NCBI GenBank assembly: GCA_963795555.1 | Contig: CAWCHZ010000001.1 | Location: 20,891 to 52,890, forward strand | Length of the DNA: 32,000 nt | Origin: an uncultured Solirubrobacterales bacterium | GTDB taxonomy: Bacteria > Actinomycetota > Thermoleophilia > Solirubrobacterales > Solirubrobacteraceae | Direction of reading: 5' to 3' | Shown: piece by piece, positions 2,992 to 30,747 of the stretch | How positions within the stretch are numbered: the first letter of the stretch is position 1 | Layout: each line of letters begins with the position of its first letter | Notes under the pieces: model-generated | Databases searched by the model: none | Told to the model about the DNA's origin: nothing | Seen by the model: the letters and a program-made list of their open reading frames with translations, nothing else | Position numbers and translations under genes: made by a program

Positions 2992-3040
2992 GGACGAGGC
3001 GGCGAGCCGGGGTGGGGATGAGGCGACGCGAGCTGGCGAG

Positions 3041-14419: not shown

Positions 14420-15259
14420 TCAACGGCTGTCGGTGGGGGGTCGCGCGGGCTCGGATGGGGCCGTGTGCTCGTGTGAAGCTGGCTGCTCGAATGGGCCGCG
14501 CTGCGCGACTGGCGCGGGCTGCGTGGCTGGCGCGGGCTGCGTGGCTGGCGCGGGCTGCGCGGGTGGGGCGGCGGCGCGGTCGACGATCAGCTCGGTGCGG
14601 GCGCGGTTGAGCAGGCTGGCCGGCGTGCTCTGGCTCGGCCCGGCGAGCGTCGCCGCAACCGCACGAAGCTTCTCCACGCCGATCGCCAGCACGATCGCGC
14701 TGCGCGCGCCGCGCAGCAGTGGCAGCGTCATCGTGACGCGCTGAGGCGGTGGCTTGGGGCCGACGACCGCGGCGCAGAGGCTGTCGCGGCTGCGCAGCAC
14801 GGGCTGATTGGGAAACAGCGAGGCCGTGTGGCCATCCTCCCCAAGCCCCAGCAGAGCGAGGTCCAGCTGCGGCACGCCGTGCTCGTCGCGCGGCAGCTCG
14901 TCGCTGAGCTCGGCGGCGTAGGCGCGGGCGGCCTGCTCGGGCTCCTGCTCGCCGGCGATGCGGTGGACCTGCGGTGGGGTACCGCGGCTGCCGGCCAACA
15001 GCGTCTCGCGGACCAGCCGGTAGTTGCTGCGCGGATCGTCGGGGGCGACGGCGCGCTCGTCGCCGAACCACAGCTCGACGCCGCTCCAGTCGCCGACCTC
15101 CGCGGCCAGGCGCGTGTACACCGCGCGTGGGGTCGAGCCGCCGGCGAGCGCAATGTGCAACCGCGCACCCGCCGGCCGCGGCTGCTCGAGCAGCCGCTCG
15201 ATGCGTGCGGCCGCCAGCGCGGCGGCCTGCTCAGGCGTATCGGTGACCGTCAGCCTCAT
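14420..15259 (-). CDS. pgl: 6-phosphogluconolactonase with a low-complexity C-terminal extension
   Basis: LALAGGSTPRAVY, WFGDERAV and LLGLGEDGHTASLFP are pgl motifs. Start taken at ATG 15259 (MRLTVTD). The last 50-60 aa are a Pro/Ala/Gln-rich tail. Confidence 0.85.
   Translation of the reverse strand: MRLTVTDTPEQAAALAAARIERLLEQPRPAGARLHIALAGGSTPRAVYTRLAAEVGDWSGVELWFGDERAVAPDDPRSNYRLVRETLLAGSRGTPPQVHRIAGEQEPEQAARAYAAELSDELPRDEHGVPQLDLALLGLGEDGHTASLFPNQPVLRSRDSLCAAVVGPKPPPQRVTMTLPLLRGARSAIVLAIGVEKLRAVAATLAGPSQSTPASLLNRARTELIVDRAAAPPAQPAPATQPAPATQPAPVAQRGPFEQPASHEHTAPSEPARPPTDSR
14509..14562. repeat. 18-bp in-frame tandem repeat, 3 copies with one mismatch, encoding (PAPATQ)n in the pgl tail
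   Basis: The unit CTGGCGCGGGCTGCGTGG occurs at 14509, 14527 and 14545. Confidence 0.9.
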
Positions 15260-15308
15260 CGGCGGGGTGCCGCCGATCGCGGGCGCGACCTCGATTGTCC
15301 GGGGACGC

Positions 15309-16352
15309 TCATCCTCGGGACGCCGCAAGGTCCTCGCGCAGCAGCGCCGCGGCCGCCTCGACGGCGCCCGCATAGCCTCGCGCGAAGCGGCCGGCCGGTG
15401 GCAGTGCGTCGGCGAAGAGGTTGCGCAGCCGGTGCGAGGCGGCGCCGCGGTGCAGCTCGATCGTGGTTTCGCCGCCGTGGATGCGCACGCGCTCGATCTC
15501 GTCGGCGCAGCTGCTCGCGCTCGGCTTGATCGTGATCAGGGCGTCGGCGCCGTCCGGGCCGGCGCCCGGCACGCGCCAGCGCCGCCCGTCGCCATGGCAG
15601 CCCTCCAGCGACCAGCCCAGGCGCGCGACGATCCAGCCGGCGAGCAGCAGCGCGTCGGCCACCGCCGCTGCGCCGTGATCGATCTCGATCGTCTCGACGC
15701 CCGCCAGCAGGGCAAGCTGATCCGGCGCATCGAAGCTGGCGGCGATCAGCGCGCGCCAGTGCTCGAGCCGGCCCCAAGCCAGGTCGTGCACGACGGTGCT
15801 GGCGCCGAGCGCCGCGGCGCGGCGCAGCGCCCGCGTCGTCTCGACCGAGCCGGAGTCGAGCACGGCGTGCTCGGCGCGTCCGAGCAGTACCTCCTCGCCA
15901 GGCGCCGGCGTCTCGTCGCACAGCCAGAGCACGGTCGGCAGGCCGCGCACCAGCAGCGGCGCGACCAGCGACTCGGCATGCTCCAGGCGCGCGTCGTCGG
16001 CGATCAGCTTGATGCGATCGTGGCAGTAGCCCGCCTCGCCCGGCGCTCGGCTCATCCAGCAGTCGATCGCGATGCGCGCATCCAGTCGCGGCTCCTGGTG
16101 GCGACAGAGCACGACGGTGCGCGAGGGGTTGTGCCAGCCGAGCGTTGCGAGCGTCTGCTCCACCGCGGGCTGCCCGCGGCTGGCGATCGGCTGCCCGCGG
16201 CTGACGATCAGGTTGAGCGTCCGCGTGACGGCGTGGTTGTGGGCGTCATGGAGGTGCTCGACCTGCACGCGACAGAGCTCTTCGGCGACGGTCGCGATCG
16301 TGACGTCGCTGCCCTGCCAGTTGGACGGCTCGGGGGCGATCTGGGCGCTCAT
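15309..16352 (-). CDS. opcA: Glucose-6-phosphate dehydrogenase assembly protein OpcA
   Basis: It sits between zwf and pgl. TRTLNLIV...NPSRTVVL...LVAPLLVRGLPTVLWL is OpcA-like. It contains a 21-bp in-frame duplication (16168-16188 and 16189-16209, 1 mismatch). Confidence 0.8.
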   Translation of the reverse strand: MSAQIAPEPSNWQGSDVTIATVAEELCRVQVEHLHDAHNHAVTRTLNLIVSRGQPIASRGQPAVEQTLATLGWHNPSRTVVLCRHQEPRLDARIAIDCWMSRAPGEAGYCHDRIKLIADDARLEHAESLVAPLLVRGLPTVLWLCDETPAPGEEVLLGRAEHAVLDSGSVETTRALRRAAALGASTVVHDLAWGRLEHWRALIAASFDAPDQLALLAGVETIEIDHGAAAVADALLLAGWIVARLGWSLEGCHGDGRRWRVPGAGPDGADALITIKPSASSCADEIERVRIHGGETTIELHRGAASHRLRNLFADALPPAGRFARGYAGAVEAAAALLREDLAASRG

Positions 16353-16410
16353 CGCCGGCGCATCGCAGACGTTGCCGGCGCGGCAGCCTGGGCGCTCACC
16401 GCCGGCCGGC

Positions 16411-17985
16411 TCACAGCGCTCGCCAGGCGCGTCCGTCGGCGCCGATCAGCTCATCGGCGGCGGCCGGACCATCGCTGCCTGCCTCATACGACGCAAGCTC
16501 TGGCTGACCGGAGTGCCAGGCCTCGAGGATCGGGTTGACGAGCCGCCAGGCCGCCTCGACCTCGTCGGCGCGCGTGAAGAGGGTCGGGTCGCCGACGAGC
16601 GCGTCGTGCAACAGGCGCTCGTAGGCCTCGGGCGACTCGCGCAGGAAGGCCGCGCCGTAGCTGAAGTCCATCTGCACCGGACGGATCTCCATCGTCGAGC
16701 CGGGCACCTTGGCGACCATCCGCAGGCTGACGCCCTCGTTGGGCTGGACCGAGATCAGCAGCTGGTTGGGCTCCACGACCCCCACACCCCCCGTGAAGGG
16801 CAGGTGTGGCACCGGCCGAAACGCGATCGCGATCTCGGTCGCGCGGACCTTCAGGCGCTTGCCGGTGCGCAGGTAGAAGGGCGTGCCGGCCCAGCGCCAG
16901 TTGTCCAGCTCCAGGCGCAGCGCCGCATAGGTCTCGGTCTGCGAGTCGGCTGGAACCCCCTCCTCCTCGAGATAGCCGGGCACCTGCTCGCCGGCGACCC
17001 AGCCGGCGCTGTACTGGGCGCGCACTGACGCGGTGGCGGCCTCCGCGGGCGTCCAGGGCTTGGCCGCCGAGAGCGCCTTGACCTTCTCGTCGCGGATCAG
17101 CTCGGCGCTGAAGCGCAGCGGCGGCTCCATCGCCACCAGCGAGGTGAGCTGCAGCGCGTGGTTCTGGATCACGTCGCGCAGCGCGCCAGCGTTGTCGTAG
17201 TAGCCCGCGCGATGGCCGATGCCGATGTCCTCGGCAACCGTGATCTCGACGTGGTCGATGTAGCGCCGGTTCCAGAGCGGCTCGAACAGGCCGTTGGCGA
17301 AGCGCAGCACGAGCAGGTTCTGCACCGTCTCCTTGCCGAGGTAGTGGTCGATGCGGAAGATCTGCTGCTCGTCGAAGGCGGCGCGCAGCTGGCGGTTGAG
17401 CTCGATCGCCGAGTCGAGGTCGTGCCCGAAGGGCTTTTCGACGACCAGCGCGCTGGGCGGCTCGGCGCCGGCGCCCAGCCCGACCTTGCCCAGCGCCTGG
17501 GCGATCGGCCCGAAGAACGAGGGCGCGGTCGCCAGGTAGAAGAGGCGGCGCGTCGGGCCACCAAGCCGGCGATCGCTGTCGGCCAGCTGCTCGACGAGCC
17601 GCTGGAAGGTCTCGGGGCTGTCGAAGTCGCCTCCGACCCATTCGAGCTTGGCGCGCAGCGCCCGCCAGGCGTCGGGATCGAGGCCGGTGCGCGAGAAGCG
17701 CTCGATCGAGTCCTCGACGTGGCGTCGGAACGGCTCGTGGTCGTCGGCGCGGCGGCCGACGCCGATCAGCCGGAAGCGCTCGGGCAGCTGGCCGGCGATC
17801 GCGAGGTTGTAGAACGCGGGCAGCAGCTTGCGCGCCGCCAGGTCACCGGTCGCCCCGAACAGCACCATCGTCGAGGGCGGCGGCAGTGGCTGCTGGACGT
17901 CGGCGGCGAAGGGGTTGGCCGGCGCCTCGCTGGGCGCCCTGCTGATGGTGGTGTTGGTGACGGTCGCCGCGTCGGTCGCGCTCAT
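16411..17985 (-). CDS. zwf: Glucose-6-phosphate 1-dehydrogenase
   Basis: LFGATGDLAARKLLPAFYNL (NADP-binding motif) and the RIDHYLGKE active-site signature are present. The start ATG overlaps the tal-pgi stop (ATGA at 17983-17987). Confidence 0.95.
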   Translation of the reverse strand: MSATDAATVTNTTISRAPSEAPANPFAADVQQPLPPPSTMVLFGATGDLAARKLLPAFYNLAIAGQLPERFRLIGVGRRADDHEPFRRHVEDSIERFSRTGLDPDAWRALRAKLEWVGGDFDSPETFQRLVEQLADSDRRLGGPTRRLFYLATAPSFFGPIAQALGKVGLGAGAEPPSALVVEKPFGHDLDSAIELNRQLRAAFDEQQIFRIDHYLGKETVQNLLVLRFANGLFEPLWNRRYIDHVEITVAEDIGIGHRAGYYDNAGALRDVIQNHALQLTSLVAMEPPLRFSAELIRDEKVKALSAAKPWTPAEAATASVRAQYSAGWVAGEQVPGYLEEEGVPADSQTETYAALRLELDNWRWAGTPFYLRTGKRLKVRATEIAIAFRPVPHLPFTGGVGVVEPNQLLISVQPNEGVSLRMVAKVPGSTMEIRPVQMDFSYGAAFLRESPEAYERLLHDALVGDPTLFTRADEVEAAWRLVNPILEAWHSGQPELASYEAGSDGPAAADELIGADGRAWRAL

Positions 17986-20876
17986 CAGGCGCGACCCGTG
18001 CCGTCGCCCTCGCCCGATCGCCCCTGCGCGTCGGTGCTCGCGGATTCGCCGCCGTCGCCCTCGGCGACGTCCGCCACCAGCTGCGCCAGCTGCTCGAGCG
18101 CGCGCTCGACGTCGCCGGAGAGATGCACGTGCACGGCGGGCAGGTCACGCGAGCGCAGCGCGCGCAGGTCGCCGATAGCCTGCGCGCGGATCAGCGTCGC
18201 GAAGTCATAGCCAGCGCCCGGCACCTCGACGTCGCCGCGGCCGTCGTGGGTGATCTGCAGGAAGCGCCCGCTTGGCGGGCCGCCCTTGTGCAGCTGGCCG
18301 GTGGAATGCAGGTAGCGCGGTCCATAGCCGACCGTCGTCGCGACCGCCTGGGCGTCGCGTACGCTGCGGCGCAGCCGCGTCAGCGCCCGGTCGGCGCGCG
18401 CGCTGGGGGCGATGTAGGCGAGCGTGGCGAGGTAGCTGCCAGGGCCGGTCTCATCCAGCAGCTCAGCGAGCGCCCGGGCGACCGTCGTCGGGCCGCCGTT
18501 GCGCGTCGGCCCGAGCACGCGCAGGTCGTCCTGGGTGGCGATCACCTCCTCCTCGGGCAGCCGCCCGTCGCGACGGTAGGCCTCGATGGTCTCGCTGACC
18601 AAATCCTTGGCCTCCTGCACGTTGGGCTGGTCGAAGGGGTTGATGGTGAGCACGGCGCCGGCGGTGGCGACGGCGAGCTCCCAGGTGAAGAACTGCGCGC
18701 CGAGGTCGGCGGCCTCGTCGAACGGGATGCTGATAACCGGGTGGCCGGCGTCGGCCAGCGCGGCCAGACGGCGATCGACCTCCTCGTCAGCCTGCTTGGC
18801 GTTGCGCAGGTGGACGAAGACCCGATCGGCGCCGTAGTCGGCGGGCTCGCCAAGCGGCTCGTCGGCGATCGGGACGATGCCCTTGCCCTCCTTGCCCGTG
18901 CTCTCCGCGACCAGCTGCTCGAGCCACAGCCCAAGGCTCGACAGCGGCTCCGAGACCACGAAGGTCAGCTTGTCCCGGCCATGCTGGGCCAGCGTGCCGA
19001 TCGCCAGGCCGAGCCACAGCGCGCGGTTCTGATCGCAGGCCAGCTCGGGCATCGAGCTGTGCATCGCGACCTCGGCGCTGTCGAGCAGCGCCCAGACGTT
19101 GACGCCGATCAGCGCTGCCGGCAACAGGCCGAAGTACGACAGCGCCGAGTAGCGCCCGCCGATGCCCGGGTCGTTCAGGAACGTGCGGCGAAAGCCCTCG
19201 CGCTCGGCGTGGTCGGCGAGCGCGGTGTCGGGATCGGTGATCGCGACGAAGTGCGAGCCGTCGTCGATCAGGCCGCGGAAGTAGGAGTACAGAGCGCGCG
19301 GCTCGAGCGTGCCCCCCGACTTGCTCGAAACCAGGAACAGCGTGCGCTCCAGCGTCAGGCGCTCGGCGAGGCCGGCGACCGCGTCGGGATCGGTCGAGTC
19401 GAGCACATGCAGGTCGAGGAAGCCGGGCGCGCTGCCGAAGCTGCGCCGCAGCACCAGTGGCGCGAGGCTCGATCCACCCATCCCCAAGAGGACGCAGTCG
19501 GTGAAGCCAGCCTGGCGCAGGTCGGCGGTGAAGCTGGTCAGATCGCAGAGGCGCTCGCGCATCTGCTCGGCGATCGTCAGCCAGCCGAGGCGGTTGGAGA
19601 TCTCCTCCGCCGAGGGCTTCCAGAGCGTGTGGTCGGTGCGCCAGATGCGCAGCGCCACGCGCTCGCGCTCAGCCCAGCGCACGCGCTCGCCGATCGCCTC
19701 GGCGTCCTGCTCGGCCAGGCGCGCCTCGAGGTCGGGCGGCTGACCCGACACAACCGCCTCGCGGCGCCGCTCGATGCCCGCCAGCAGCTTGTCCAGCGCC
19801 TCCGCGAAGGCGGCGATCCCGTCGACGAGCAGCTGCTCGGTGACCTCCGCGAGCGAGATGCCGGCGGCCTCGATGTCCTCGATCAGCTGGTGGGCCTCGT
19901 GCTCGCTGTCGGTCAGCTCGTCGCCCACCACACCGTGATCCTGGAAGGCCTGCAGCGTCGCCATCGGCATCGTGTTGACGACCTGCGGCCCGGCCAGCTC
20001 GGTGACGTACTTGGTGTCGGGATAGCGGGGGTCCTTGGTCGACGTCGAGGCCCACAGCAGCCGCTGCGGGCGGGCACCGTGCTCGCGCAGCGCCACGAAG
20101 CGCGGGTCGGTCAGGCTGCGCGTGAAGTGGCCGTAGGCGACCTTGGCGTTGGCGGCCGCCGCGCGCCCCAACAGGTCGTCGCGTCCCAACGCCATCAGAC
20201 GGGGGTCGATCGCGCTGTCCACGCGGGAGACGAAGAAGCTGGCGACCGAGGCGACGCGATCGATCGGCTCGCCGCGTCCGACGCGCTCCTCCAGCCCGGT
20301 CAGGTAGGCGTCGGCGACACGCAGGTAGGCGTCGACCGAGAACAGCAGCGTGATGTTGATGTTGATCCCGGCGGCGACCGAGCGGCGGATTGCCTCGACG
20401 CCCTCCGGCGTGCCGGGGATCTTGATCATCACGTTCGGGCGGTCCAGGCGCCGCCAGAGGTCGGCGGCGGCGGCGATCGTGCCCTCGGTGTCGTGCGCGA
20501 GCTCGGGCGCCACCTCGAGGCTGACATAGCCGTCGTGGCCGTCGCTGGCGTCGTAGACCGGGCGCAGCACGTCGGCCGCGCCGCGCACGTCCTCCAGCGC
20601 CAGCGTCCAGTAGATGTCCTTGACCGCGCGGCCGTCGCTGGAGAGCTCGCGCAGGCGCTCGTCGTAGTCGGGGCTGCCGAGGATCGCCTTCTCGAAGATC
20701 GATGGGTTGGACGTCACCCCGACGACGCAGTCCTCGTCGATCAGTCGCTTGAGCTCGCCGGTCTCGAGCATCGCCCGGCGAATCGAGTCGATCCAGACGC
20801 TGGTCCCCAGCGCCGACAGCGCGGCCAGAGGGCTCGTGGGGGAGGCCTGGCTGGGGTGGGTGGTGGGGGAGGTCAT
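17985..20876 (-). CDS. Bifunctional transaldolase / glucose-6-phosphate isomerase fusion
   Basis: The N-terminal ~370 aa are transaldolase-like (SVWIDSIRR...VTSNPSIFEKA...MIKIPGT). The C-terminal ~590 aa are PGI-like (LLGMGGSSLAP...GGRYSALS). It is a single 963-aa ORF. Confidence 0.9.
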   Translation of the reverse strand: MTSPTTHPSQASPTSPLAALSALGTSVWIDSIRRAMLETGELKRLIDEDCVVGVTSNPSIFEKAILGSPDYDERLRELSSDGRAVKDIYWTLALEDVRGAADVLRPVYDASDGHDGYVSLEVAPELAHDTEGTIAAAADLWRRLDRPNVMIKIPGTPEGVEAIRRSVAAGININITLLFSVDAYLRVADAYLTGLEERVGRGEPIDRVASVASFFVSRVDSAIDPRLMALGRDDLLGRAAAANAKVAYGHFTRSLTDPRFVALREHGARPQRLLWASTSTKDPRYPDTKYVTELAGPQVVNTMPMATLQAFQDHGVVGDELTDSEHEAHQLIEDIEAAGISLAEVTEQLLVDGIAAFAEALDKLLAGIERRREAVVSGQPPDLEARLAEQDAEAIGERVRWAERERVALRIWRTDHTLWKPSAEEISNRLGWLTIAEQMRERLCDLTSFTADLRQAGFTDCVLLGMGGSSLAPLVLRRSFGSAPGFLDLHVLDSTDPDAVAGLAERLTLERTLFLVSSKSGGTLEPRALYSYFRGLIDDGSHFVAITDPDTALADHAEREGFRRTFLNDPGIGGRYSALSYFGLLPAALIGVNVWALLDSAEVAMHSSMPELACDQNRALWLGLAIGTLAQHGRDKLTFVVSEPLSSLGLWLEQLVAESTGKEGKGIVPIADEPLGEPADYGADRVFVHLRNAKQADEEVDRRLAALADAGHPVISIPFDEAADLGAQFFTWELAVATAGAVLTINPFDQPNVQEAKDLVSETIEAYRRDGRLPEEEVIATQDDLRVLGPTRNGGPTTVARALAELLDETGPGSYLATLAYIAPSARADRALTRLRRSVRDAQAVATTVGYGPRYLHSTGQLHKGGPPSGRFLQITHDGRGDVEVPGAGYDFATLIRAQAIGDLRALRSRDLPAVHVHLSGDVERALEQLAQLVADVAEGDGGESASTDAQGRSGEGDGTGRA

Positions 20877-21050: not shown

Positions 21051-21317
21051 ATGCACCGCACCCAGATCACCCTCACCGACGACCAGTACGCGCGCCTGCT
21101 GGATGAGTCCGCGCGCACCGGACGCTCGCTGGCGGCGCTGATCCGTCGGTTGCTCGACGAGCGCTACGGCCTGCTGTCGGACGCCGACCGCCTCCGGTCG
21201 CTGGAGAGCGCCTTCGGCGCCTGGGCCGGACGCGAAGAGACCAGTCAGGACTACGTCGAGCGGGTGCGATCGGGTACCGCCCGTCGGCTGGGCGCTCAGC
21301 GTGCCGGGTCTGGCTGA
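21051..21317 (+). CDS. Ribbon-helix-helix (CopG/VapB-like) antitoxin
   Basis: MHRTQITLTDDQYARLLDESARTGRSLAALIRRLLDE has the RHH beta-strand plus two-helix pattern. It overlaps the downstream PIN gene by 17 nt. Confidence 0.8.
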   Translation: MHRTQITLTDDQYARLLDESARTGRSLAALIRRLLDERYGLLSDADRLRSLESAFGAWAGREETSQDYVERVRSGTARRLGAQRAGSG

Positions 21318-21681
21318 CACCTCCGTCCTCGTCGACTACCTGCGTGGGGTTGAGCCTGCGCAAGCGCTGCTGAGATCGGCGATCGAGCGCGGTGAAGTCG
21401 TGGCGGCCTCCGCGCTCAGTCGGCTCGAGCTGATGATCGGCATGCGCCGCTCGGAGCGCCGGCGCACAAGCGCCCTGATCGCAGCGATCCGCTGGCTGGC
21501 GGTCGATGAGCGCGTCCTTGTCGAGGCGGACTCGTTGGCCCTGCGCTACGGCCCCAGTCAGTCCGGCATCGATGCCGTCGACTACTGCATCGCCGCAACG
21601 GCGCGCCTGCATCGGCTCGAGCTCTGGACCCTCAACGTCCGGCACTTTCCGATGTTCGCCGGGCTTCGGACGCCCTGGTGA
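21301..21681 (+). CDS. PIN-domain ribonuclease toxin (VapC-like)
   Basis: GTG start. LADTSVLVDYL (Asp), SRLELM (Glu) and IDAVDYCIAATA (Asp) are arranged as PIN acidic residues. Confidence 0.8.
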   Translation: MPGLADTSVLVDYLRGVEPAQALLRSAIERGEVVAASALSRLELMIGMRRSERRRTSALIAAIRWLAVDERVLVEADSLALRYGPSQSGIDAVDYCIAATARLHRLELWTLNVRHFPMFAGLRTPW

Positions 21682-21834
21682 GGATGCGCTGGCAGCCGCG
21701 GTCCTGACGATCGCCGGCAGCTCGGCCCAGCTGTCCCCCGAGCCTCAGACGCAAGCCGCTACGCCGCTGGCCCGGCGCCCGTAGCGCCCTGATCCGGCAC
21801 GCTTGCGGCAACACTCGTCGCGGCTTCGGCCGAG

Positions 21835-22317
21835 ATGAGCGCCATGGAGGGCAGTCAACTGCGTGGCGACGAGGCGATCCTGTTCGAGGCGCACCACGCT
21901 CGCCTGGCGAGCTTGCTGCGGCGGACGGTGAGGGCGTCACCGGCGGTCATCGAGGATGCCTGTGCGACCGCCTGGGAGATCTTCTTGCGCCGCCAGCCGG
22001 CGCGCGATGACATCGGCGGTTGGCTTTACGTCGTGGCCCGCCGCGAGGCGTGGCGGCTGTGCTCGCGTGAGCTGCGCACGCAGCCGCTCGAGGATCGGAG
22101 CGAGCCGGCCGGCGAGGCCGACATGGAGCTGCGCATTGCGCTCACCGACGGTCTGACGGCGATCCGGCGGCTGCCCCGGCGACGCCGCGAGGCGCTCCTC
22201 AAGCATGTCGCGGGCTTCAGCTACGCGGAGATCGGCGCCGGGCTCGGGCTGTCATGGCGCGGCGTCGACAAGCAGCTTCGCAAGGCCCGTCGCGAGCTGA
22301 AGCGCGGGGCGTGCTGA
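21835..22317 (+). CDS. ECF-type (sigma-70 family, regions 2+4) RNA polymerase sigma factor
   Basis: Region 2-like: FEAHHARLASLLRR...IEDACATAWEIFLRR...WLYVVARREAWRL. Region 4 HTH: LPRRRREALLKHVAGFSYAEIGAGLGLSWRGVDKQLRKARRELK. Confidence 0.8.
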   Translation: MSAMEGSQLRGDEAILFEAHHARLASLLRRTVRASPAVIEDACATAWEIFLRRQPARDDIGGWLYVVARREAWRLCSRELRTQPLEDRSEPAGEADMELRIALTDGLTAIRRLPRRRREALLKHVAGFSYAEIGAGLGLSWRGVDKQLRKARRELKRGAC

Positions 22318-22571
22318 CCAGCCCGGAGCTCGTGCGCCCAAACCACCGTTCTCGGCGCGGGGCCGAAGCGCCCTTTACGAATGGTCTGTACCAATCGTAC
22401 CCTCGTCCGGATTGGCGCAAATTCACTTTGCAATGATCAGGGGAGCCTGGGCATCCTGCCGCCCCCAAATCTGCGCGACATGGGAGGACAGGACGATGCA
22501 TGCGACAGCCACGGCGGCAGCGAATCGTCCGGGAGCAACAGCTGCGGCCGGGTGCTCCGAGTAGGGGATCA

Positions 22572-23921
22572 ATGGCAATCACACCCGACTCTCGCGGCAT
22601 CGCCGAGTTCGAGCGCTTCGTGCGCGCCAACGAGGCGCTGTTCCGGCGCTACGTCGCTCGCAAGCTGAGCGGGTCGCAGGTGAGCGTCGACGACACGTTG
22701 CAGGAGGGGCTGGAGCGGATCTGGAAGGCCTTCCAGAAGGCCTCCTGGCCGAGCGAGCCGGCGGCGAAGGCGCAGTTTGCCCACCAGCTGTTGAAGTGTG
22801 CCGCGATCGACGCGATCCGTGGGGTCGACGGACGCGGCGGCACGCGCCGTGGCCGCGAGATCTTGATCGACCACCGGGCGCTGGACGGAGCTCACACGCT
22901 CGATGGCGCTCACAACGACGACCACCACGGGGTTGCGGTCGCCGCGATCCATCGGATGCTCGTGCGACGCGCCGCCGAGGAACGGGACGTCGATGCCGAC
23001 GCCGCTGTGGTGCTCGGTGCGATCGCCGCGCTGACGGCCGATGAGCTGCGCATCGTCTACCTGGCGGCCGCCGGCTTCGATCACAAGGAGATCGCCGCCA
23101 GGCTGGGGCTGACGCACCAGGCCGTTCGGTCGCGCTTTGTCGTCGCACGCCAACTCGTGCGCGAGCTTGTCGCCTGCGCGTTGGGAGATCGTGCCGGCCA
23201 CGCTCATCGCCAGCGGGTGTACGACTACCTCGATGGTCGCCTCGGCGGTCGCGCCAAGCGGCTGGCGGAGCGTCATCTCCGCTGCTGCCCCTCGTGTCGG
23301 CGGAGCGTCGAGCTCGAGCGCGAAGCGGTCGAGCGCGCGACGCGGATCCTCAGCGGGCTGCCCTGGCTGGGCCCGCTTGGCCTGCTCGGATCGAGCGCGC
23401 TCGCCGGCGCCGCCGCGGCCGCGGGTGTGACCGCGGCTCCGGGCGCGGTGGCGGCTCCCGGTGCGGCTCCGGGCGCGGCGGCGGCTCCGGGAGGGGCGGC
23501 GGCCGTGGGCGGACACACCGCCGTGCTCGCCGGCGCCGGTGCGAAGCTCTGCGTCGCTGGTGCCCTGCTCGCCGCGGCAGGCCTCGCCGCTCCGCGCGTC
23601 GCGGCGGCTCTGCTGGCACGCCATCACGTCATCGGCGCGACGGCAAGGCCGGCCAGGATCGAGCGGGCGCCAGCGGCCGTCGCCCCGACCGCCGGGGCGC
23701 TCGCGGCGGCTCACGTCGCGGCGCGCTCGCCGCACGCTTGGCCGGTGCGCATTGCGCGAACGTCCGCCCGTCCGGCCGTCACCGCCGCGCACGCAGCGGC
23801 GGTTCCCAGCTCGGCGCACCCGACCCCTTCAACCAACCCCACGCAGCGCGTGTCTCCGAACACCGCGCCACGTCCAACAGCCGCCGGCGGTGCCGGTGGA
23901 GCGTTCTCACTGGGCCAATGA
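22572..23921 (+). CDS. Sigma-70/ECF-like factor fused in one polypeptide to a zinc-finger (zf-HC2/ZAS) anti-sigma motif, TM segments and an Ala/Pro-rich C-terminal tail
   Basis: SD AGGGGA (22563-22568) precedes ATG 22572. Region 2-like: FERFVRANEALFRRYV...DDTLQEGLERIWKAF...LLKCAAIDAIR. Region 4 HTH: LTADELRIVYLAAAGFDHKEIAARLGLTHQAVRSRFVVARQ. The next segment, VYDYLDGRL...AERHLRCCPSC, gives H-x3-C-x2-C at nt 23274-23297. Hydrophobic stretches lie at about nt 23350-23600. Confidence 0.65.
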   Translation: MAITPDSRGIAEFERFVRANEALFRRYVARKLSGSQVSVDDTLQEGLERIWKAFQKASWPSEPAAKAQFAHQLLKCAAIDAIRGVDGRGGTRRGREILIDHRALDGAHTLDGAHNDDHHGVAVAAIHRMLVRRAAEERDVDADAAVVLGAIAALTADELRIVYLAAAGFDHKEIAARLGLTHQAVRSRFVVARQLVRELVACALGDRAGHAHRQRVYDYLDGRLGGRAKRLAERHLRCCPSCRRSVELEREAVERATRILSGLPWLGPLGLLGSSALAGAAAAAGVTAAPGAVAAPGAAPGAAAAPGGAAAVGGHTAVLAGAGAKLCVAGALLAAAGLAAPRVAAALLARHHVIGATARPARIERAPAAVAPTAGALAAAHVAARSPHAWPVRIARTSARPAVTAAHAAAVPSSAHPTPSTNPTQRVSPNTAPRPTAAGGAGGAFSLGQ

Positions 23922-23983
23922 CCGGACCCGCGCATCCGCGGCCCGGCGCAACACCCCGTCAGTCCCGACAAAGGAGCTCCCGC

Positions 23984-26800
23984 ATGCCCTCGTCAGCCCG
24001 CTCATCGTTGACCAAGGTCACGATCGTGATCCTGCTCACGCTCGGCATCGGGCTGCACGCCCTCGGTCGCCCGGCAGACGCCCTCGCCGGCAGCTATTGG
24101 GTGCATGGCTGCGATTCGGCAGGCGGCGCGCAGAGCTCCTGGGGTGGCTTCTCGACCACCTCTGCCTATCAGGACACCGTCACCTGTCCGACCAACGGCA
24201 ACGCGCACAACGGCATCACGACCAGCGTCATCGACTCGGGGCTGGTCGGCCTGTACGCCGACGCCGGCTGGCAGGCCTCGGCGCCTTACGGCACGACGCT
24301 CAGTGCGGTGAACCTCACCTTCGCCTTCCCCTGGTATCCCTCGACGCCGGACTTCAGCTTCGGGCTCAACGCCAACAACCAGCTGATGTTCGAATGTGGT
24401 CGGAACTTCCCCGCCTGCCAGGGCTCCGGCTCCAGCCTGCTCACCCTGTCACTGCCATCTGGTACCACGGCACTCACGACGTTCGTCAGCTGCCAGCACG
24501 CCGGCGGCTGCAACACCAACACCGACGGCGGGTTCGCCGTCGCGGTCCAGTCGGCGGATGTGCAGGTGACCGACGACACGCTGCCGGTGCTGACCCACGG
24601 GCAGGGGTTGTGGGCCAACGGCGGCTGGGTGAGCGGCTCCCAGCCGGTCAGCTTCGACGCCAGCGACAACAGCGGCATCCAGGACGCGCGCATCGAGATC
24701 GATCCCGGCCCGGGCAACTACGGCAACCCGATCGATCAGCCCCACCACTGCGACTACAGCCTGATGGGACCGTGCCCCGAGCAGGGCGCGAGCGGCATCA
24801 TCGACACCACGCGCTACAGCGACGGACCCCATGTGCTCAACATCGCCGCCGAGGACGCGGCGGGCAATTGGGCCAGCACCTACAAGACGATCTACATCTC
24901 CAACATGTCACCGCCTGCGCCACAGACGCTGAACGTCATCGGCGGGCAGGGCTGGCGGCAGACCAACTCCTTCGACCTGGTTTGGCAGACGCCCGCCAGC
25001 GCCGACCAGGCGCCGCTCGCCGACCTGGACTTCCACGTCTGCAACGTGCAGACGGGAGCCTGCCGCGACTGGCAGCAGCCGGTCACCAGTCAATCGCAGA
25101 GCGAGCTCGACGGCGTCTCCACGCAGGGCAACGCCGATGAGACCTGGCAGGTCGCGCTGCAGGACGCAGCCGGCAACGTCGGTCCGTACTCCAACGCGAT
25201 TCACCTGCGCTACGACGGGACGGTGCCGGGTCACGACGCGCTGAGCTCCCGAAATGGGTGGATTTCAGCGCACGACGCCGACAGTTTTGCTCAGCAGGTC
25301 CAGATGCGGCAGACCGCGGCAGTAGGGCCTTCCGGAATTGCGGGATACGCACTCTCCGTAGACATGCAGCCGGGCGACGCCGTCACACCGGGCGCTGCGG
25401 CCGATCCAACGACGGCTCAGTGGCTCACCAACTACGCGATGAGCCTGCCTGAGGGCGTCCACACCGTGTATGCGCGAGCCATTTCCGGTGCGGGCGTGCC
25501 ATCGGACACCGTCGACAGCACGGTGGTGCAGGTCGACCGGACGCCGCCGACGGTCACCGCCACGACGGTCGACTCGGCCCGGCCCTACAACCACCCCGTC
25601 ACGATCACGATCACCGGCGCCGACCAGCCCGGCCTGTCGGGCATGGCGCCCGCGCCGGCGGGACAGCCGGTGACCAGCGGCGCCTACATCGAGTACTCGC
25701 TCGACGGTGGCGCGCCGGTCGACGTCCCGGGCGCGAGCGCCACGGTCACCGTCGGCTCGGATGGCCAGCACGCGCTCGCCTATCGCGCCTACGACCTCGC
25801 CGGCAACCCGAGCGCGATCCAGACCAACCAGCTGACGATCGACCAGACGCCACCGATCGGCGGCCTGGCCGGCATCGACGGCAACGTCGTGCGCTTCCAC
25901 ACCGCCGAGACGTGCCTGCAGTCGGCACAGATCCAGTACTCCGCCGGCGGCCAGAGCTGGACCAGCATCCAGACGACGATCGACGGCGGCGACGCCGCGG
26001 CCGCGCTGCCCGACCTCGGGCTCGACCACCCCGCGATCAGCGTGCGCGGCCTGTTCACCGACTGCGCCGGCAACAGCGCGCTGCTGGCGAACTGGCTGCC
26101 GGGCGTCGACGGCGGCGGCCCCGCGGTCGTGGTGGCGCCAAGCGACCGCCAGCCCGCGCAGCTGCGCTGGACCGTGCCGCTGCCCGCGGGCGCCGGCGCG
26201 CTCGTGCGTCGCGGCCAGCTGCTGCACGGGACGCTGCTCGACGCGGCCGGGCATCCGCTGCCCGGCGCGACGATCACGGTCAGCGTGCTGCCGCGCGACG
26301 CGACGACCTGGCTTGCCGTCGGCAGCCTGCGGACGGATGTCGGCGGTCGCTTCTCCTACGCCGTCCCGGCCGGCCCCTCGCGGACGATCCAGTTCGCCTT
26401 CGCCGGTGACGTCGCGCTGCGCCCGGCGGCCGCCGCAGTGACCGTCCGCACGCCCGCGGTGACGACGCTTGCGGCCGACTACCGCGCGATGCGCGTCGGC
26501 CAGGTCGTCACCTTCTCCGGGCGTTTGCTCGGCGGCTACGTGCCGGCGCGCGGCGCGCTCGTCGTGCTCGAGGCGTTCGACCGCGCCCACTGGGTGAAGT
26601 TCGCCACCGCACACGCCAGCTCCCGCGGGCGTTGGACCACGAGCTACCGGATCATCGCCGGCAGCGGCAGCTACGTCTATCGGATCCGCGTGCTCGTCCC
26701 GCTGCAGCAGGGCTATCCCTACCAGGCGGGCGGCTCGCGCCGCGACTACCGGCTGACCGTCTCGCCGTACGGGCCGGTCATCCGCAACCGGGGTCGTTGA
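23984..26800 (+). CDS. Secreted 938-aa protein: signal peptide, Cys-rich N-terminal domain, repeated Ig-like modules, C-terminal carboxypeptidase-regulatory-like beta-sandwiches
   Basis: SD AAGGAG (23971-23976) precedes ATG 23984. The signal peptide is MPSSARSSLTKVTIVILLTLGIGLHALGRPADALA. Modules ending in D-x-AGN recur (GPHVLNIAAEDAAGNWAS, DGQHALAYRAYDLAGNPSA, LQDAAGNVG, TDCAGNSA). The upstream part of ORF 23294 overlaps the preceding gene in another frame and was discarded. Confidence 0.7.
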   Translation: MPSSARSSLTKVTIVILLTLGIGLHALGRPADALAGSYWVHGCDSAGGAQSSWGGFSTTSAYQDTVTCPTNGNAHNGITTSVIDSGLVGLYADAGWQASAPYGTTLSAVNLTFAFPWYPSTPDFSFGLNANNQLMFECGRNFPACQGSGSSLLTLSLPSGTTALTTFVSCQHAGGCNTNTDGGFAVAVQSADVQVTDDTLPVLTHGQGLWANGGWVSGSQPVSFDASDNSGIQDARIEIDPGPGNYGNPIDQPHHCDYSLMGPCPEQGASGIIDTTRYSDGPHVLNIAAEDAAGNWASTYKTIYISNMSPPAPQTLNVIGGQGWRQTNSFDLVWQTPASADQAPLADLDFHVCNVQTGACRDWQQPVTSQSQSELDGVSTQGNADETWQVALQDAAGNVGPYSNAIHLRYDGTVPGHDALSSRNGWISAHDADSFAQQVQMRQTAAVGPSGIAGYALSVDMQPGDAVTPGAAADPTTAQWLTNYAMSLPEGVHTVYARAISGAGVPSDTVDSTVVQVDRTPPTVTATTVDSARPYNHPVTITITGADQPGLSGMAPAPAGQPVTSGAYIEYSLDGGAPVDVPGASATVTVGSDGQHALAYRAYDLAGNPSAIQTNQLTIDQTPPIGGLAGIDGNVVRFHTAETCLQSAQIQYSAGGQSWTSIQTTIDGGDAAAALPDLGLDHPAISVRGLFTDCAGNSALLANWLPGVDGGGPAVVVAPSDRQPAQLRWTVPLPAGAGALVRRGQLLHGTLLDAAGHPLPGATITVSVLPRDATTWLAVGSLRTDVGGRFSYAVPAGPSRTIQFAFAGDVALRPAAAAVTVRTPAVTTLAADYRAMRVGQVVTFSGRLLGGYVPARGALVVLEAFDRAHWVKFATAHASSRGRWTTSYRIIAGSGSYVYRIRVLVPLQQGYPYQAGGSRRDYRLTVSPYGPVIRNRGR

Positions 26801-26860
26801 GGGCGCGTACGCAGGATGGCAGATCGTCCAGACCCGCCAAGCCTGATGCTCTCACCAGGA

Positions 26861-26889
26861 CATCCGTCGAGGTCGCTGGCCATCCGTCG
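26861..26889 (+). promoter_or_regulatory. Direct repeat CATCCGTCG x2 with 20-bp periodicity upstream of the S8 protease gene
   Basis: Exact 9-mers at 26861-26869 and 26881-26889, 27 nt upstream of GTG 26916. Confidence 0.25.
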
Positions 26890-26915
26890 CGCGATCACAC
26901 CAAAATGCCCGAGCG

Positions 26916-29888
26916 GTGAGGTACCTGGATCGAATATGTGGCTTTGCCATCTTCGCGATCGTGCTTGCCCTGGCGATCGGCGTGTCGGGCCGCGTCGCCG
27001 CCGGGGCTCCAGCCGCTCAGCCGGTGGTTGGCGTGCGCCTGCGTCCTCCGGCGCTGTTTCACGCGCCACGACTGGTGCCGGGCCTGGCACGAGCTGGTCG
27101 AGTGAAGGTGCTGATCCGGCTGGCACAAGCCCCGCTCGCTCGGGCGGCGGCCGCCGCGAGCGTGCGGCGGGCGCTGGCGGGACGGCTGTCGCGATCCGAG
27201 CTGGCGTTGTTGCGCCGATCCCACGGCTGGCTTGGCACGACGGCATTCATCGCGCGCGCCAACGCGGTGGCACGGCGTCGCGCGCTGCGTGCGCTGCAGG
27301 GCGCGGCCGATCGCACGATGGTCGCGCTCGGGCGCCTCGCGCGCGACATCGCGCGGGTGGGCGGACGCGTCCTGAGCATCGACCTGCTCGGCGGGTCGCT
27401 CACGGCGACCATCCCGGCCCGGGCGCTGGCGCGGCTGGCCGCACGGCGTGATGTGGCGAGCGTCGCCCCCGCGCCGGTCATCGAGCGCTTCGACACCGGC
27501 GTGCTCGAGCAGACCGACTCGACGGGCGCCCCGGCCTGGTGGGCGGCGGGGCTCACCGGTGGCACGGGCAGCGCTGACCGCCTGCCCGCGAGCCTGGCGA
27601 TCACCGACGACAAGATCCAGGAGGACCAGCCGGCGTTCGCCGGCGTGGCGTTCGAGCGCCCGCAGGGCGAGCCGATCTACGCCGACTGCTCGAAGCTCGG
27701 ATCCGACTGCGGCCACGGCACCGAGGTCGCCGGCGCCGCGGTCAGCCAGGGCGTCGCCAGCTGCCCCACCGCGACCGGCTACACCTGCAACGCGGGCGAC
27801 GTGCAGCCGACCTGGAAGGGCGTGGCCTATGGGGTTGGCCATCTGCTGGATGCGAGTCTCGAGAGCGTCGACGCCATAACCGTAGGACGCTTCAGTGAGG
27901 CGGCATGGGAGATTGGTCTGAGCCAGACCGATCCCCAGACGGGCAACACGCTGCCCGGCGCGGCCGACCCCGCGCAGGTGCTAAACGGCAGCTGGGGCGG
28001 GACGCCTGCCAGCGATGACGACTCCTACATGGAGGCCATCGACGGGATGCTCTACGCCTACGGCCTCACGGGCGCGTGGGCGGCGGGCAACTACGGCAAG
28101 ACGACCGATCAGCTCGCCGAGCCGTGCACGGCGTACAACACGATCTGCGTCGGCGCGGTCGCCGACGCTGGCACCTCGTCGCAGGCCGACGACCAGATCG
28201 CCGACTTCTCGAGCACCGGACCGACGATCGCCGGGCGCAAGAAGCCCGACCTCGTCGCCGTTGGAGCGTCCAGCGCGCCGGAGGGCAACATCACGACGGC
28301 GCGCCAGGACTGGCAGTCCTCGAGCAGCCTGTGGCTGGCCGACAACGGCACGTCGTTCGCGACGCCACAGGTCGCCGGCGCCGCGGCGCTGCTCGTCGGC
28401 TCGGGCATCACGGACCCCAACGCGGTCAAGGCGATCCTGATCGACTCGGCGACCCCGGGCCGTGCGACGCCGTCATCGCCGGTCGGCAGCGCGCAGGGCT
28501 GGGTGCCCGGCTGGGGCTGGGGCGAGCTCGATCTCAACGCGGCGCTCGCCCAGCGCCAGGACTTCGTCACCGACAGCGTTCTCGCCTACGGCGTTCACCT
28601 CTATCGCGCCACGACCACCGCCACGGGTGATCGCGCGACGCTCGTCTGGCAGCAACGCGAGACCGATTGTCACTTCAACGCGGCCTACTGCCCGCCCGCC
28701 TACACGCTCACCCACCTGACGCTGGGGGAGTACGACGCGAGCTCCCAGCAGCTGCTCGCCTCATCCGCATCGGCGCTCGACAACGTCCAGCAGGTCCAGC
28801 ATCCCGCCGCTGCGCCGGCCAGCGAGGCGGTCGTCTATGCCGTCGCGGCGGCCTCCAGCGTCGCTGGACTGACGGCCGAGCCCTACGCGCTCGCGGCCAC
28901 CAACCAGCTCACGCCGCTGGCCAACCCCCAGCCGACGATCACGATCGCCCCGATCGGCGGCCCCTTCCGCCAGGGCCAGCCGGTGACTGTTAGGGCGACG
29001 ATCGCCAACCCCTCCGGCGACCTGACCGCCCCCGCGGTCCAGGTTACGCTGAGCGCTCCGGTCGCGGTGAACATCACCGCCGGCGCCCCGACGCAGTCAC
29101 TCGGCGACATCGCCACACACGGCAGCGCCACGGCCCGCTGGACGATCAGCGCCGGCGCCGACGGGATCTACACATTCACGATCTCGGCGAGCACGGGCCA
29201 GCTCTATGGCCAGACGTTCAGCGCCGCCGCCACGAGCGACCGCTTCCTGGTCGACTCGACGTCGCCGACCGTCGCGATCGACCGCCCCGCCGCCAGCCAG
29301 TCGGCCACGACGATCCCGGTCGGCTGGTCGGCGACCGACGCCGGCTCGGGCGTCGCTGCGTATGACGTCGACGTCGCCGTCGACGGCGGCCCCTACATCC
29401 CGTGGCTGCCAGACACGACCCTGACCTCCGCCAGCTACACCGGCGTCGACGGGCACTCCTACTCGTTTCGAGCCCGCGCGAGCGACCTGCTCGGCAACAT
29501 CTCCACCTACAGCTACGGCGGATTGGTGACGCTGATCATGCCCTCGTGTTGCGGCACCGGCTCCGGCCCGGGCGCTTCGCAGCGACCCGGCCACCATGGG
29601 GGCCTCGCCCCCCGGCTCGCGCTGACGGAGCTGCACCGGCGCGGGGCGCAGCTGGTCGTTGGTGGCACGATCGCCCGAGCCGCGACCGGCTGGGTGCAGA
29701 TCACCTGTCGCCTGCAGCTGGGACGCCAGCCGTCAACCCTGCGCCTGCGCGCGCGCGTCGTGCGCGGACGCTGGCGCCTCGTCTATCGCCTGCGCTGGCG
29801 TCACGCCCGCCTGAGCGCTGTGACGATCCGCTACCCCGGAGACCGCCGCTACGCCGCCGCGACCGCCTTCCGAGCGGTGAGCGGATGA
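26916..29888 (+). CDS. Secreted S8 subtilisin-family serine protease with an I9-like propeptide and C-terminal CARDB/Ig-like domains
   Basis: The signal peptide is (M)RYLDRICGFAIFAIVLALAIGVSGRVAAG. The catalytic triad context is LAITDD (Asp), DCGHGTEVAG (His) and DNGTSFATPQVAGAAALL (Ser). The C-terminus has VTVRATIANPSGDL (CARDB-like) and DSTSPTVAIDRP...SATDAGSGVAAYDV...DGHSYSFRARASDLLGN. Confidence 0.85.
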   Translation: MRYLDRICGFAIFAIVLALAIGVSGRVAAGAPAAQPVVGVRLRPPALFHAPRLVPGLARAGRVKVLIRLAQAPLARAAAAASVRRALAGRLSRSELALLRRSHGWLGTTAFIARANAVARRRALRALQGAADRTMVALGRLARDIARVGGRVLSIDLLGGSLTATIPARALARLAARRDVASVAPAPVIERFDTGVLEQTDSTGAPAWWAAGLTGGTGSADRLPASLAITDDKIQEDQPAFAGVAFERPQGEPIYADCSKLGSDCGHGTEVAGAAVSQGVASCPTATGYTCNAGDVQPTWKGVAYGVGHLLDASLESVDAITVGRFSEAAWEIGLSQTDPQTGNTLPGAADPAQVLNGSWGGTPASDDDSYMEAIDGMLYAYGLTGAWAAGNYGKTTDQLAEPCTAYNTICVGAVADAGTSSQADDQIADFSSTGPTIAGRKKPDLVAVGASSAPEGNITTARQDWQSSSSLWLADNGTSFATPQVAGAAALLVGSGITDPNAVKAILIDSATPGRATPSSPVGSAQGWVPGWGWGELDLNAALAQRQDFVTDSVLAYGVHLYRATTTATGDRATLVWQQRETDCHFNAAYCPPAYTLTHLTLGEYDASSQQLLASSASALDNVQQVQHPAAAPASEAVVYAVAAASSVAGLTAEPYALAATNQLTPLANPQPTITIAPIGGPFRQGQPVTVRATIANPSGDLTAPAVQVTLSAPVAVNITAGAPTQSLGDIATHGSATARWTISAGADGIYTFTISASTGQLYGQTFSAAATSDRFLVDSTSPTVAIDRPAASQSATTIPVGWSATDAGSGVAAYDVDVAVDGGPYIPWLPDTTLTSASYTGVDGHSYSFRARASDLLGNISTYSYGGLVTLIMPSCCGTGSGPGASQRPGHHGGLAPRLALTELHRRGAQLVVGGTIARAATGWVQITCRLQLGRQPSTLRLRARVVRGRWRLVYRLRWRHARLSAVTIRYPGDRRYAAATAFRAVSG

Positions 29889-29924
29889 CCACCGCCCGTC
29901 GGCATGCGTTATGATGTAGACACA

Positions 29925-30188
29925 ATGATGGTACGGACGCAGATCATGCTCGACGCCGAGGCCCATCGGCGCGCCAAGCGCCGCGCCGCCGAGCTGGGCG
30001 TGTCGCTGGCGGAATACGTGCGCCGGGCGGTCGATCGCGACCTCGGCGCCGCACCTCAGCGCAGCGATCCGAGCGCGATCTTCGGCCTCTTCGACTCGGG
30101 TGGCTCGGATGTGGCGCGCGACAAGGACCGCTACGTCGATGCGGCGATCAGCCAGGCCCATGGACGTGGCCCACGCGCGCGGCCGTGA
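29925..30188 (+). CDS. Ribbon-helix-helix (CopG/VapB-like) antitoxin, paralog of 21051..21317
   Basis: M(M)VRTQIMLDAEAHRRAKRRAAELGVSLAEYVRRAVDRDL aligns with the first antitoxin (MHRTQITLTDDQYARL...). Start at ATG 29925 or 29928; the annotated 29904 start would place the TATGAT box inside the CDS. Confidence 0.75.
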   Translation: MMVRTQIMLDAEAHRRAKRRAAELGVSLAEYVRRAVDRDLGAAPQRSDPSAIFGLFDSGGSDVARDKDRYVDAAISQAHGRGPRARP

Positions 30189-30218
30189 GCCCCCCACCGA
30201 CCCTGAATCCCACCGGTC

Positions 30219-30632
30219 GTGAGCCTGTTCGTCGACACCTCTGCCTTCTACGCGGCAGCCGACGCGGGCGACAGCAGCCACCGACAGGCCACCCGCGTGC
30301 TCGGCGAGGCCGAATCGCTCATCACCAGCGACCATGTCCTGATCGAGTCCTGGCTGCTGATGCGAGCGCGTGCCGGTCTGGGCGCGGCGCAGCGCTTCTG
30401 GCAGGCGATTCGTGGCGGCCTGGCCAGCGTCGAGACCGTTCTGCCGACCGACCTCGACCGCGCATGGCTGATCGGCGAGGAATTTCCCGATCAGGGCTTC
30501 TCGATCGTCGATCGCACGAGCTTTGCCGTGATGGAGCGCCTCGGCCTGACCGCGGTCGCGAGCTTCGACGATCACTTCGCGGTCTACCGCTTCGGCGCGC
30601 GGCGCGAGCGCGCGTTCGAGCTGCTGCGTTGA
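30219..30632 (+). CDS. PIN-domain ribonuclease toxin (VapC-like)
   Basis: GTG start. SLFVDTSAFYA (Asp), HVLIESW (Glu), FSIVDRTSFAVM (Asp) and ASFDDHF (Asp). Confidence 0.8.
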   Translation: MSLFVDTSAFYAAADAGDSSHRQATRVLGEAESLITSDHVLIESWLLMRARAGLGAAQRFWQAIRGGLASVETVLPTDLDRAWLIGEEFPDQGFSIVDRTSFAVMERLGLTAVASFDDHFAVYRFGARRERAFELLR

Positions 30633-30747
30633 CGGCATTTCACGCCGCGGCGCGCTGACGGCTGTGTTCGCGCTCCGGCGCTGATCGTTCCGCAGCCACG
30701 GCTGGCAGCCGACAACACCGCGCGGCGCTGCTGCCGAGATAGGGCAT

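Follow-up and report, generated by a model that had tools for sequence, protein, structure and literature searches.

The window analyzed here is a stretch of 32,000 nucleotides from an uncultured Solirubrobacterales bacterium (assembly GCA_963795555.1, contig CAWCHZ010000001.1, positions 20,891 to 52,890), and our subject is one gene at positions 22572 to 23921 of its forward strand. In a single polypeptide, this gene encodes an extracytoplasmic function (ECF) sigma factor, a class I zinc-binding anti-sigma (ZAS) domain, a predicted membrane anchor, and a low-complexity tail. We refer to it as the fusion gene. Its features are as follows, with the evidence for each part.

22572..23921, + strand, fusion gene (ECF sigma factor, ZAS anti-sigma domain, membrane anchor, low-complexity tail), 449 aa
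22590..22829, + strand, sigma region 2 (aa 7–86); Pfam Sigma70_r2, AlphaFold2 helices, column conservation
22830..22991, + strand, extended linker between sigma regions 2 and 4 (aa 87–140) with an 18-nt × 2 duplication; model confidence, tandem repeat finder, conservation
22992..23180, + strand, sigma region 4 helix-turn-helix (aa 141–203); Pfam, PDB profile matches, Foldseek
23175..23357, + strand, ZAS anti-sigma domain (aa 202–262); zf-HC2, invariant columns, weak RsrA match
23517..23594, + strand, best candidate transmembrane segment (aa 316–341); hydropathy, flank charges
23595..23918, + strand, basic Ala/Pro-rich low-complexity tail, also containing Arg, that ends in GGAFSLGQ; composition

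Reading frame, homologues, and domains of the fusion gene

The open frame of the fusion gene extends from 22500 to 23921 on the + strand and would give 473 residues if counted from its first ATG. The ATG at 22572 is preceded by GGGGA, which resembles a ribosome-binding site, and gives the 449-residue product described here; two public records containing the exact sequence (one NCBI record and one Logan contig) use the same start. Because this region is 71% GC and has long spurious open reading frames in every frame, we checked the frame of the fusion gene directly. A plot of GC content by codon position followed a single frame from 22580 to ∼23330 (∼0.45–0.55 at the second codon position and ∼0.75–0.95 at the third), with no switch at 23170–23230; beyond ∼23330, the Ala/Gly/Pro-rich sequence makes all three codon positions GC-rich. 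The independent Logan assembly of run ERR11594400 matched the window with 0 mismatches over 11,325 nt.

Homologues were identified using residues 1–273 as the query; the full-length query gave 2 matches, its low-complexity tail swamping the word index. Searched exhaustively with phmmer, a set of 1.84 billion representative proteins yielded 96 matches, ∼45 of which are proteins of 400–530 aa matching in a single stretch that spans both the sigma and the ZAS parts, and a profile search added ∼90 further clusters of 420–460 aa. In all, ∼110 homologues of 420–500 aa are colinear with the window protein from sigma region 2 through the tail, so the same sigma/ZAS fusion recurs in the orthologs which a first-pass annotation of the window had proposed looking for. 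Their taxonomic labels (Solirubrobacterales, Conexibacteraceae, and Baekduia) all lie within the Solirubrobacterales (Actinomycetota, class Thermoleophilia). A protein-mode search of a plasmid database gave no match. The conservation counts given below come from a 111-member alignment of this family.

In that alignment, the junction between the sigma and anti-sigma parts (aa 195–216) is in frame and conserved, with R201, H/C202, A203, G205, E212, and L216 kept, and we take this comparison with homologues to be the strongest evidence for one gene rather than two. An alternative would be that an indel, introduced during sequencing or assembly, merged an ordinary sigma gene with a separate anti-sigma gene; in its favor, the region is repetitive and, at 71% GC, of a composition in which long spurious frames are common. 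However, the frame plot shows no switch, the second assembly is identical, and the in-frame junction is preserved in 111 homologues from many samples. We regard a frameshift artifact as effectively ruled out, with only a vanishing probability left to it, and the continuity of the frame which the first-pass annotation had read from the letters was borne out by the same three lines of evidence.

The N-terminal half carries sigma regions 2 and 4, as the first-pass annotation had proposed. Pfam Sigma70_r2 matched aa 26–83 at 24.4 bits (cutoff 24), and Sigma70_r4_2 matched aa 148–193 at 25.4 bits, 0.3 bits under its cutoff of 25.7, while the generic NCBIfam sigma70-ECF model TIGR02937 passed with 45.2 against a cutoff of 42.9. 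PDB profile matches were to ECF sigma factors only (SigG1, SigL, SigE, and SigH), and the best Foldseek fold matches were likewise ECF sigma factors (SigL, SigE, SigH, and RpoE). The AlphaFold2 model covers aa 1–270 and was built from a 20-sequence alignment, with a mean predicted local distance difference test score (pLDDT) of 80.9 and a predicted template modeling score (pTM) of 0.48; the sigma-2 helices at 7–31, 39–54, and 63–86 are modeled at pLDDT >90, and sigma-4 is modeled confidently too. At least 95% of the family keeps D41, L43, and Q44 in region 2, R186, A192, and R193 in region 4 are near-invariant, and all six are conserved in at least 90%. With regions 2 and 4 present, the latter at a marginal score, and regions 1 and 3 absent, the protein has the composition of an ECF (sigma-70 group 4) factor.

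The linker between the two regions is unusually long. It had been described in the first-pass annotation as an insertion of ∼60 residues, but it exceeds the generic ECF length (that of the TIGR02937 model) by ∼25–30 residues, not 60, and is a family-wide trait rather than one confined to the window protein. G87, R93, D100, and then a helix at ∼121–132 are kept across the family; the linker is poorly ordered at ∼87–135, with low pLDDT over aa 91–120. The short internal duplication also noted earlier, LDGAH-T-LDGAH, was confirmed by the tandem repeat finder as an 18-nt × 2 tandem repeat at 22879–22914. It is private to the window protein and falls where the linker is least conserved and modeled with low confidence; we read no function into it.

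The last sigma-4 helix is followed, after a short predicted break (aa 204–209), by three anti-sigma helices at 210–220, 226–238, and 240–262 (pLDDT ∼88–96 in the AlphaFold2 model). Pfam zf-HC2 matched aa 213–243 at 28.5 bits, above its cutoff of 22.2, and the NCBIfam RsrA model matched weakly at aa 213–251 (22.1 bits, far under its cutoff of 62.5). The H-x3-C-x2-C motif which the first-pass annotation had taken for the start of a zinc anti-sigma factor is H235-x3-C239-x2-C242, and its placement at nt 23274–23297 was exact. These three residues are invariant in the family, and position 202 is always His or Cys (His in 107 of the 111 members and Cys in 4, including the window protein), so that the predicted zinc ligands of the window protein are C202, H235, C239, and C242. 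Such invariance is what we would expect of these ligands because a functional anti-sigma domain acting in cis would show it. With an H-x3-C-x2-C motif and an upstream His or Cys as predicted ligands in a helical anti-sigma domain, the window protein has the defining features of the ZAS class.

The canonical spacing between the first ZAS ligand and the next is 23–26 residues, and an unrelated fusion of an ECF factor with zf-HC2 (labeled P0187) has a canonical C-x25-H-x3-C-x2-C site. The first Cys of P0187 aligned by BLASTP with C202, which places the first zinc ligand of the window protein right where the last sigma-4 helix ends; the Solirubrobacterales family has a 7-residue insert, and the spacing in the window protein is x32 between C202 and H235 versus x25 in P0187. 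A first ligand at the junction of sigma-4 and the anti-sigma domain, combined with this insert, appears to be specific to the family. The ZAS helices are followed by a conserved, hydrophobic P-L-P segment at aa 262–264, which is G-L-P in the window protein. One relative's locus (L006, positions 2023–3321) encodes a 432-aa paralogue with the same layout of sigma factor, anchor, and tail but with the His/Cys zinc ligands replaced, making it a zinc-less version; it ends in GGGEFTP, and a surface-protein gene follows it there too.

Membrane anchor, tail, and C-terminal peptide

Between the ZAS domain and the anchor lies a stretch rich in Lys and Arg, with an Ala/Gly/Pro-rich spacer before the anchor whose DNA contains AAPGA-type tandem repeats at 23430–23503. 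The anchor is one clear hydrophobic segment with the family consensus GAKxAxAxxxxxL. Over the 15 residues on each side of it, the family mean charge is +1.14 on the N-terminal side and +0.14 on the C-terminal side; the N-terminal flank is the more positive in 74 members and the less positive in 16. This pattern of charges favors a single pass, with the N terminus in the cytoplasm and the tail outside the cell.

Across the family, the tail is basic, Pro-rich, and 100–130 aa long. In the window protein, it measures ∼100 aa, somewhat less than the ∼130-aa Ala/Pro-rich tail of the first-pass annotation, whose account of the composition and of a hydrophobic anchor otherwise held. No Pfam or NCBIfam domain was found in aa 260–449. 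At its extreme end, the tail carries a short conserved peptide with the consensus G-G-[G/C]-E-F-F-[G/C]-G. In 108 of 111 members, a Phe or Trp lies within the final 12 residues, as a rule 3–6 residues from the C terminus, and Phe makes up 13.7% of the last 12 residues versus 0.4% of the remaining tail, a 33-fold enrichment. Variants include GGEFVLGG, CEFFCG, SEFGFE, and GGWFGEGP, and many have two Cys residues flanking E-F-F. The window protein ends in GGAFSLGQ (nt 23895–23918, the last 8 codons), which keeps the Gly-Gly and the Phe. To our knowledge, no sorting signal or degron with the form G-G-E-F-F-G-G has been described. The peptide could be a docking or recognition site for a partner protein or a site recognized by a protease, and it appears to be specific to this Solirubrobacterales family.

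Neighboring genes in the window and in related loci

Three genes flank the fusion gene on the same strand.

21835..22317, + strand, stand-alone ECF sigma gene, 160 aa, directly upstream of the fusion gene and 254 nt away
23984..26800, + strand, large surface-protein gene, 938 aa, with a hydrophobic signal-peptide-like N terminus and Ig-like/beta-sandwich domains
27102..29888, + strand, subtilase (Peptidase_S8), 928 aa, second gene downstream of the fusion gene

The surface-protein gene starts 62 nt after the fusion gene. Its N terminus was judged signal-peptide-like from the translation; Pfam Big_13 and CarboxypepD_reg both matched weakly, and an NCBIfam OmpL47-type barrel model matched at 41.6 bits (cutoff 40). 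Homologues of this surface protein are encoded downstream of the fusion gene, mostly directly, in seven of nine other loci (L003–L005, L007–L009, and L011), and in L006 one comes after the fusion paralogue. The S8 protease gene recurs only in L011, where it also follows the fusion gene and where the fusion protein is one of the closest relatives of ours (36% identity over the shared 260 aa by tblastn). The S8 proteins of the window and of L011 gave no tblastn match to each other at E ≤ 1e-3. Given the S8 gene in L011, the subtilase is possibly part of a module with the fusion and surface-protein genes.

In most relatives, the pair of fusion and surface-protein genes opens a type IV secretion conjugation module, in the order fusion, surface protein, a 180–205-aa protein, a small protein, an ArsR-type helix-turn-helix protein, TcpE, and an AAA_10 ATPase. 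L005 has a serine recombinase upstream, and L011 has a TraG-like coupling protein, a Replic_Relax (replication-relaxation family) protein, and ParA. The loci L003–L009 and L011 look like integrative conjugative elements of Solirubrobacterales. No conjugation genes were found inside the window. The downstream gene for an Ig-like surface protein, together with the linkage to conjugation genes in most relatives, appears to be specific to this family.

Among the genes of these modules, the 183–205-aa proteins encoded after the surface-protein gene in L004 (11477–12094), L005 (11498–12115), and L006 (5594–6145) share a hydrophobic segment at the N terminus and a short G-P-x repeat resembling collagen; neither Pfam nor NCBIfam gave a match for them, and the window encodes no homologue. 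A shared leader, CGGACA-N6-8-C(T/C)AAC-N-GAT...GCCAGGGAAGG, lies ∼60 nt before the start codon of the fusion gene in L003, L004, L005, L007, and L009 and is a possible promoter or operator. This leader (CGGACA...CTAAC...GCCAGGGAAGG) is confined to the conjugative-element clade and absent upstream of the window gene, and we found no convincing promoter motif shared between the window gene and its closest relatives.

Apart from the fusion gene, no anti-sigma gene lies beside the stand-alone ECF gene upstream. We considered whether this ECF gene could be a recent paralogue of the fused sigma factor and rejected this, the alignment being confined to the helix-turn-helix region. No ECF gene lies upstream of the fusion gene in the annotated loci L004–L011, and tblastn gave no match for one in L002 or L003.

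Two RHH-PIN toxin–antitoxin pairs, at 21051–21681 and 29946–30632, bracket the block of ECF, fusion, surface-protein, and S8 genes. This block adjoins core pentose-phosphate genes lying upstream at 14420–20876 (a Tal-PGI fusion, G6PD, OpcA, and 6PGL), and could represent an island or what remains of a mobile element. The Tal-PGI fusion is a single 963-aa open reading frame on the − strand (17985–20876) that joins transaldolase and phosphoglucose isomerase domains (Pfam TAL_FSA and PGI). Elsewhere in the window, a 592-aa protein (8181–9959, − strand) joins an HD_5/HD-GYP-type phosphohydrolase to a LuxR/GerE helix-turn-helix.

Known fusions, proposed mechanism, and alternatives

The first-pass annotation had stressed that sigma and anti-sigma functions are normally on separate proteins. 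That is true, but the rarity it implied is not supported, as fused versions form recognized ECF groups. C-terminal extensions are the second commonest mode of ECF regulation, found in 19 groups (PMC7826278), and the actinobacterial groups ECF48, ECF52, and ECF53 are defined by fusions in which the ECF sigma factor is joined to a ZAS zinc finger, at least one transmembrane helix, and a long extension (PMC5826349, PMC8999054). The window protein, with an ECF core, a zinc finger, and at least one predicted transmembrane helix in one polypeptide from an actinomycetote, has the architecture of this class. Genetic work exists on the ECF52 type member, SCO4117 of Streptomyces coelicolor, for which release by a protease has been proposed; the group is restricted to Actinobacteria (PMC5826349, PMC8999054). 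Like ECF52, the window protein unites an ECF core, a zf-HC2/ZAS domain, a transmembrane part, and a long Pro-rich extension. ECF52 proteins are described with a C-terminal carbohydrate-binding module, whereas the ∼100-aa low-complexity tail of the window protein has no detectable domain; the window family also differs in ending with a short conserved G-G-E-F-F-G-G-type peptide and in its unusually long linker between sigma regions 2 and 4. Since the carbohydrate-binding module is missing, we do not file the family as ECF52. There was also no obvious Streptomyces-type protein among the 96 phmmer matches, and the sequence relationship to ECF52 and SCO4117 is therefore distant.

In ECF48 and ECF53, the sigma core is described as extended at its C terminus by as many as ∼400 residues, which include a likely ZAS zinc finger and either one or two transmembrane helices; proteolytic activation is predicted for both groups (PMC8999054). 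The descriptions consulted mention no conserved C-terminal peptide, no surface-protein partner, and no conjugative-element linkage. In IutY of Pseudomonas putida (ECF243), another fusion of sigma and anti-sigma, regulated intramembrane proteolysis by Prc and RseP has been shown experimentally (PMC8999054). IutY likewise has a sigma factor and a membrane-spanning anti-sigma domain in one polypeptide, but that domain is of the non-zinc FecR type, the protein is proteobacterial and coupled to a TonB-dependent receptor, and its homology to the window protein is limited to the sigma core. The window domain also resembles the separate ZAS factors of the RsrA/SigR, RshA/SigH, RslA/SigL, and ChrR/RpoE pairs in its H/C...H-x3-C-x2-C site, its helical domain, and its Pfam family. 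RsrA, RshA, RslA, and ChrR act in trans and are mostly soluble, whereas the window domain lies in cis and has its first ligand at the junction of sigma-4 and the anti-sigma domain. Because the ECF48/52/53 model is published and IutY has been shown experimentally to work in this way, the principle of such fusions is known and had already been described in Actinobacteria; the Solirubrobacterales proteins are a new family of that design.

We consider it likely that the fusion protein is an ECF sigma factor inhibited in cis and tethered to the membrane until regulated proteolysis sets it free. The N-terminal, cytoplasmic half with regions 2 and 4 would be the sigma factor, and the end of region 4 would run, after the short predicted break, into the ZAS domain, which would fold back onto regions 2 and 4 and keep them off RNA polymerase. 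The single transmembrane segment would place the basic Pro/Ala-rich tail and its conserved C-terminal peptide outside the cell. Activation would most likely come from regulated proteolysis, with a cut in or near the tail or the membrane segment followed by removal of the ZAS remnant, and the freed sigma factor would probably activate the operon that encodes it, the large surface-protein gene next to it included. The sequence analysis itself establishes the domain composition, the unbroken frame, the invariant zinc ligands, the conserved anchor and C-terminal motif, and the conserved neighboring gene, whereas inhibition within the molecule, proteolytic release, and the regulon are inferred. Self-inhibition and membrane tethering, with release by proteolysis or by zinc or redox chemistry, had been suggested in the first-pass annotation; by analogy, this scheme is supported, as it matches the published ECF48/52/53 model. 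The S8 protease genes, two genes downstream in the window and present also in L011, are circumstantial evidence for proteolytic release.

Several observations weigh against this proposal. The sigma model scores are marginal, with region 2 at its cutoff and region 4 0.3 bits below, and a pTM of 0.48 is too low for the structural model to show the ZAS helices packed against regions 2 and 4. In the window protein, the flank charges are reversed relative to the family (0 on the N-terminal side and +2 on the C-terminal side), and a second, marginal hydrophobic stretch at aa 259–294 raises the possibility of a two-pass hairpin with a cytoplasmic tail; because of this exception in charge and this second stretch, we infer the topology of the window protein. 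Its C-terminal GGAFSLGQ is without the conserved Glu. We identified no site-1 or site-2 protease, and a scan of 21600–30700 found no promoter and no intrinsic terminator, although the scan was of the sigma-70 type and is uninformative for ECF promoters.

Two other modes of action were weighed against proteolytic release. The fusion could be a redox or zinc switch that works without cleavage: the ZAS domain would loosen once its Cys residues are oxidized or its zinc is lost, and the sigma factor would then engage polymerase while still anchored. Soluble ZAS proteins such as RsrA and RshA are known to act so (PMC8999054), the predicted four-ligand zinc site is complete and invariant, the RsrA model matches weakly at aa 213–251, and the window protein has extra Cys residues at 202 and 238, where most relatives have His. 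The RsrA match, however, reaches only 22.1 bits against a cutoff of 62.5, zinc is merely structural in many ZAS domains, and a purely cytoplasmic switch would leave the conserved anchor, the long tail, and the C-terminal motif without a role, so we regard such a switch as unlikely. Less probable again by a clear step is that the fusion serves as a membrane anti-sigma factor for the ECF protein encoded upstream (21835–22317), with its own sigma-like half occupying the ZAS domain until a signal arrives; this would be an intramolecular partner switch analogous to PhyR/NepR. The upstream gene without another anti-sigma gene alongside, the marginal sigma scores of the fusion, and a weak PhyR_sigma2 match (19.9 bits) would fit such a mimic. 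But the upstream ECF gene has no counterpart in annotated loci L004–L011 or, by tblastn, in L002 and L003, at least 90% of the family retains the sigma-2 and sigma-4 positions, as a working sigma factor should, and the PhyR_sigma2 match is under its cutoff and accounted for by general sigma-2 homology.

More speculatively, and with a probability that we place low, the fusion could be a surface-signaling switch carried by mobile elements. The external C-terminal peptide (G-G-E-F-F-G-G or the disulfide-capable C-E-F-F-C-G) would be recognized or cleaved by the co-encoded surface protein or subtilase, and the freed sigma factor would turn on the adhesin and type IV secretion conjugation genes. 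A literature search on sigma/anti-sigma fusions on conjugative elements found nothing relevant; if true, this would be a form of conjugation control or a peptide signal that we have not found described for Actinobacteria.

To the "one-component" ECF sigma factors, those with a built-in anti-sigma domain, the finding adds a well-defined, deep-branching actinobacterial family of ∼110 sequence clusters in the Thermoleophilia. The release step is unproven even for ECF52, and the invariant zinc ligands, the single anchor, and the domain-free tail with its 8-residue C-terminal peptide provide handles on how such fusions are released. Three features deserve attention: the peptide at the C terminus, the partnership with a conserved surface-protein gene, and the association with conjugative elements. 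As a conjecture, the recurrent adjacency to conjugation genes suggests a possible link between envelope signaling and gene transfer.

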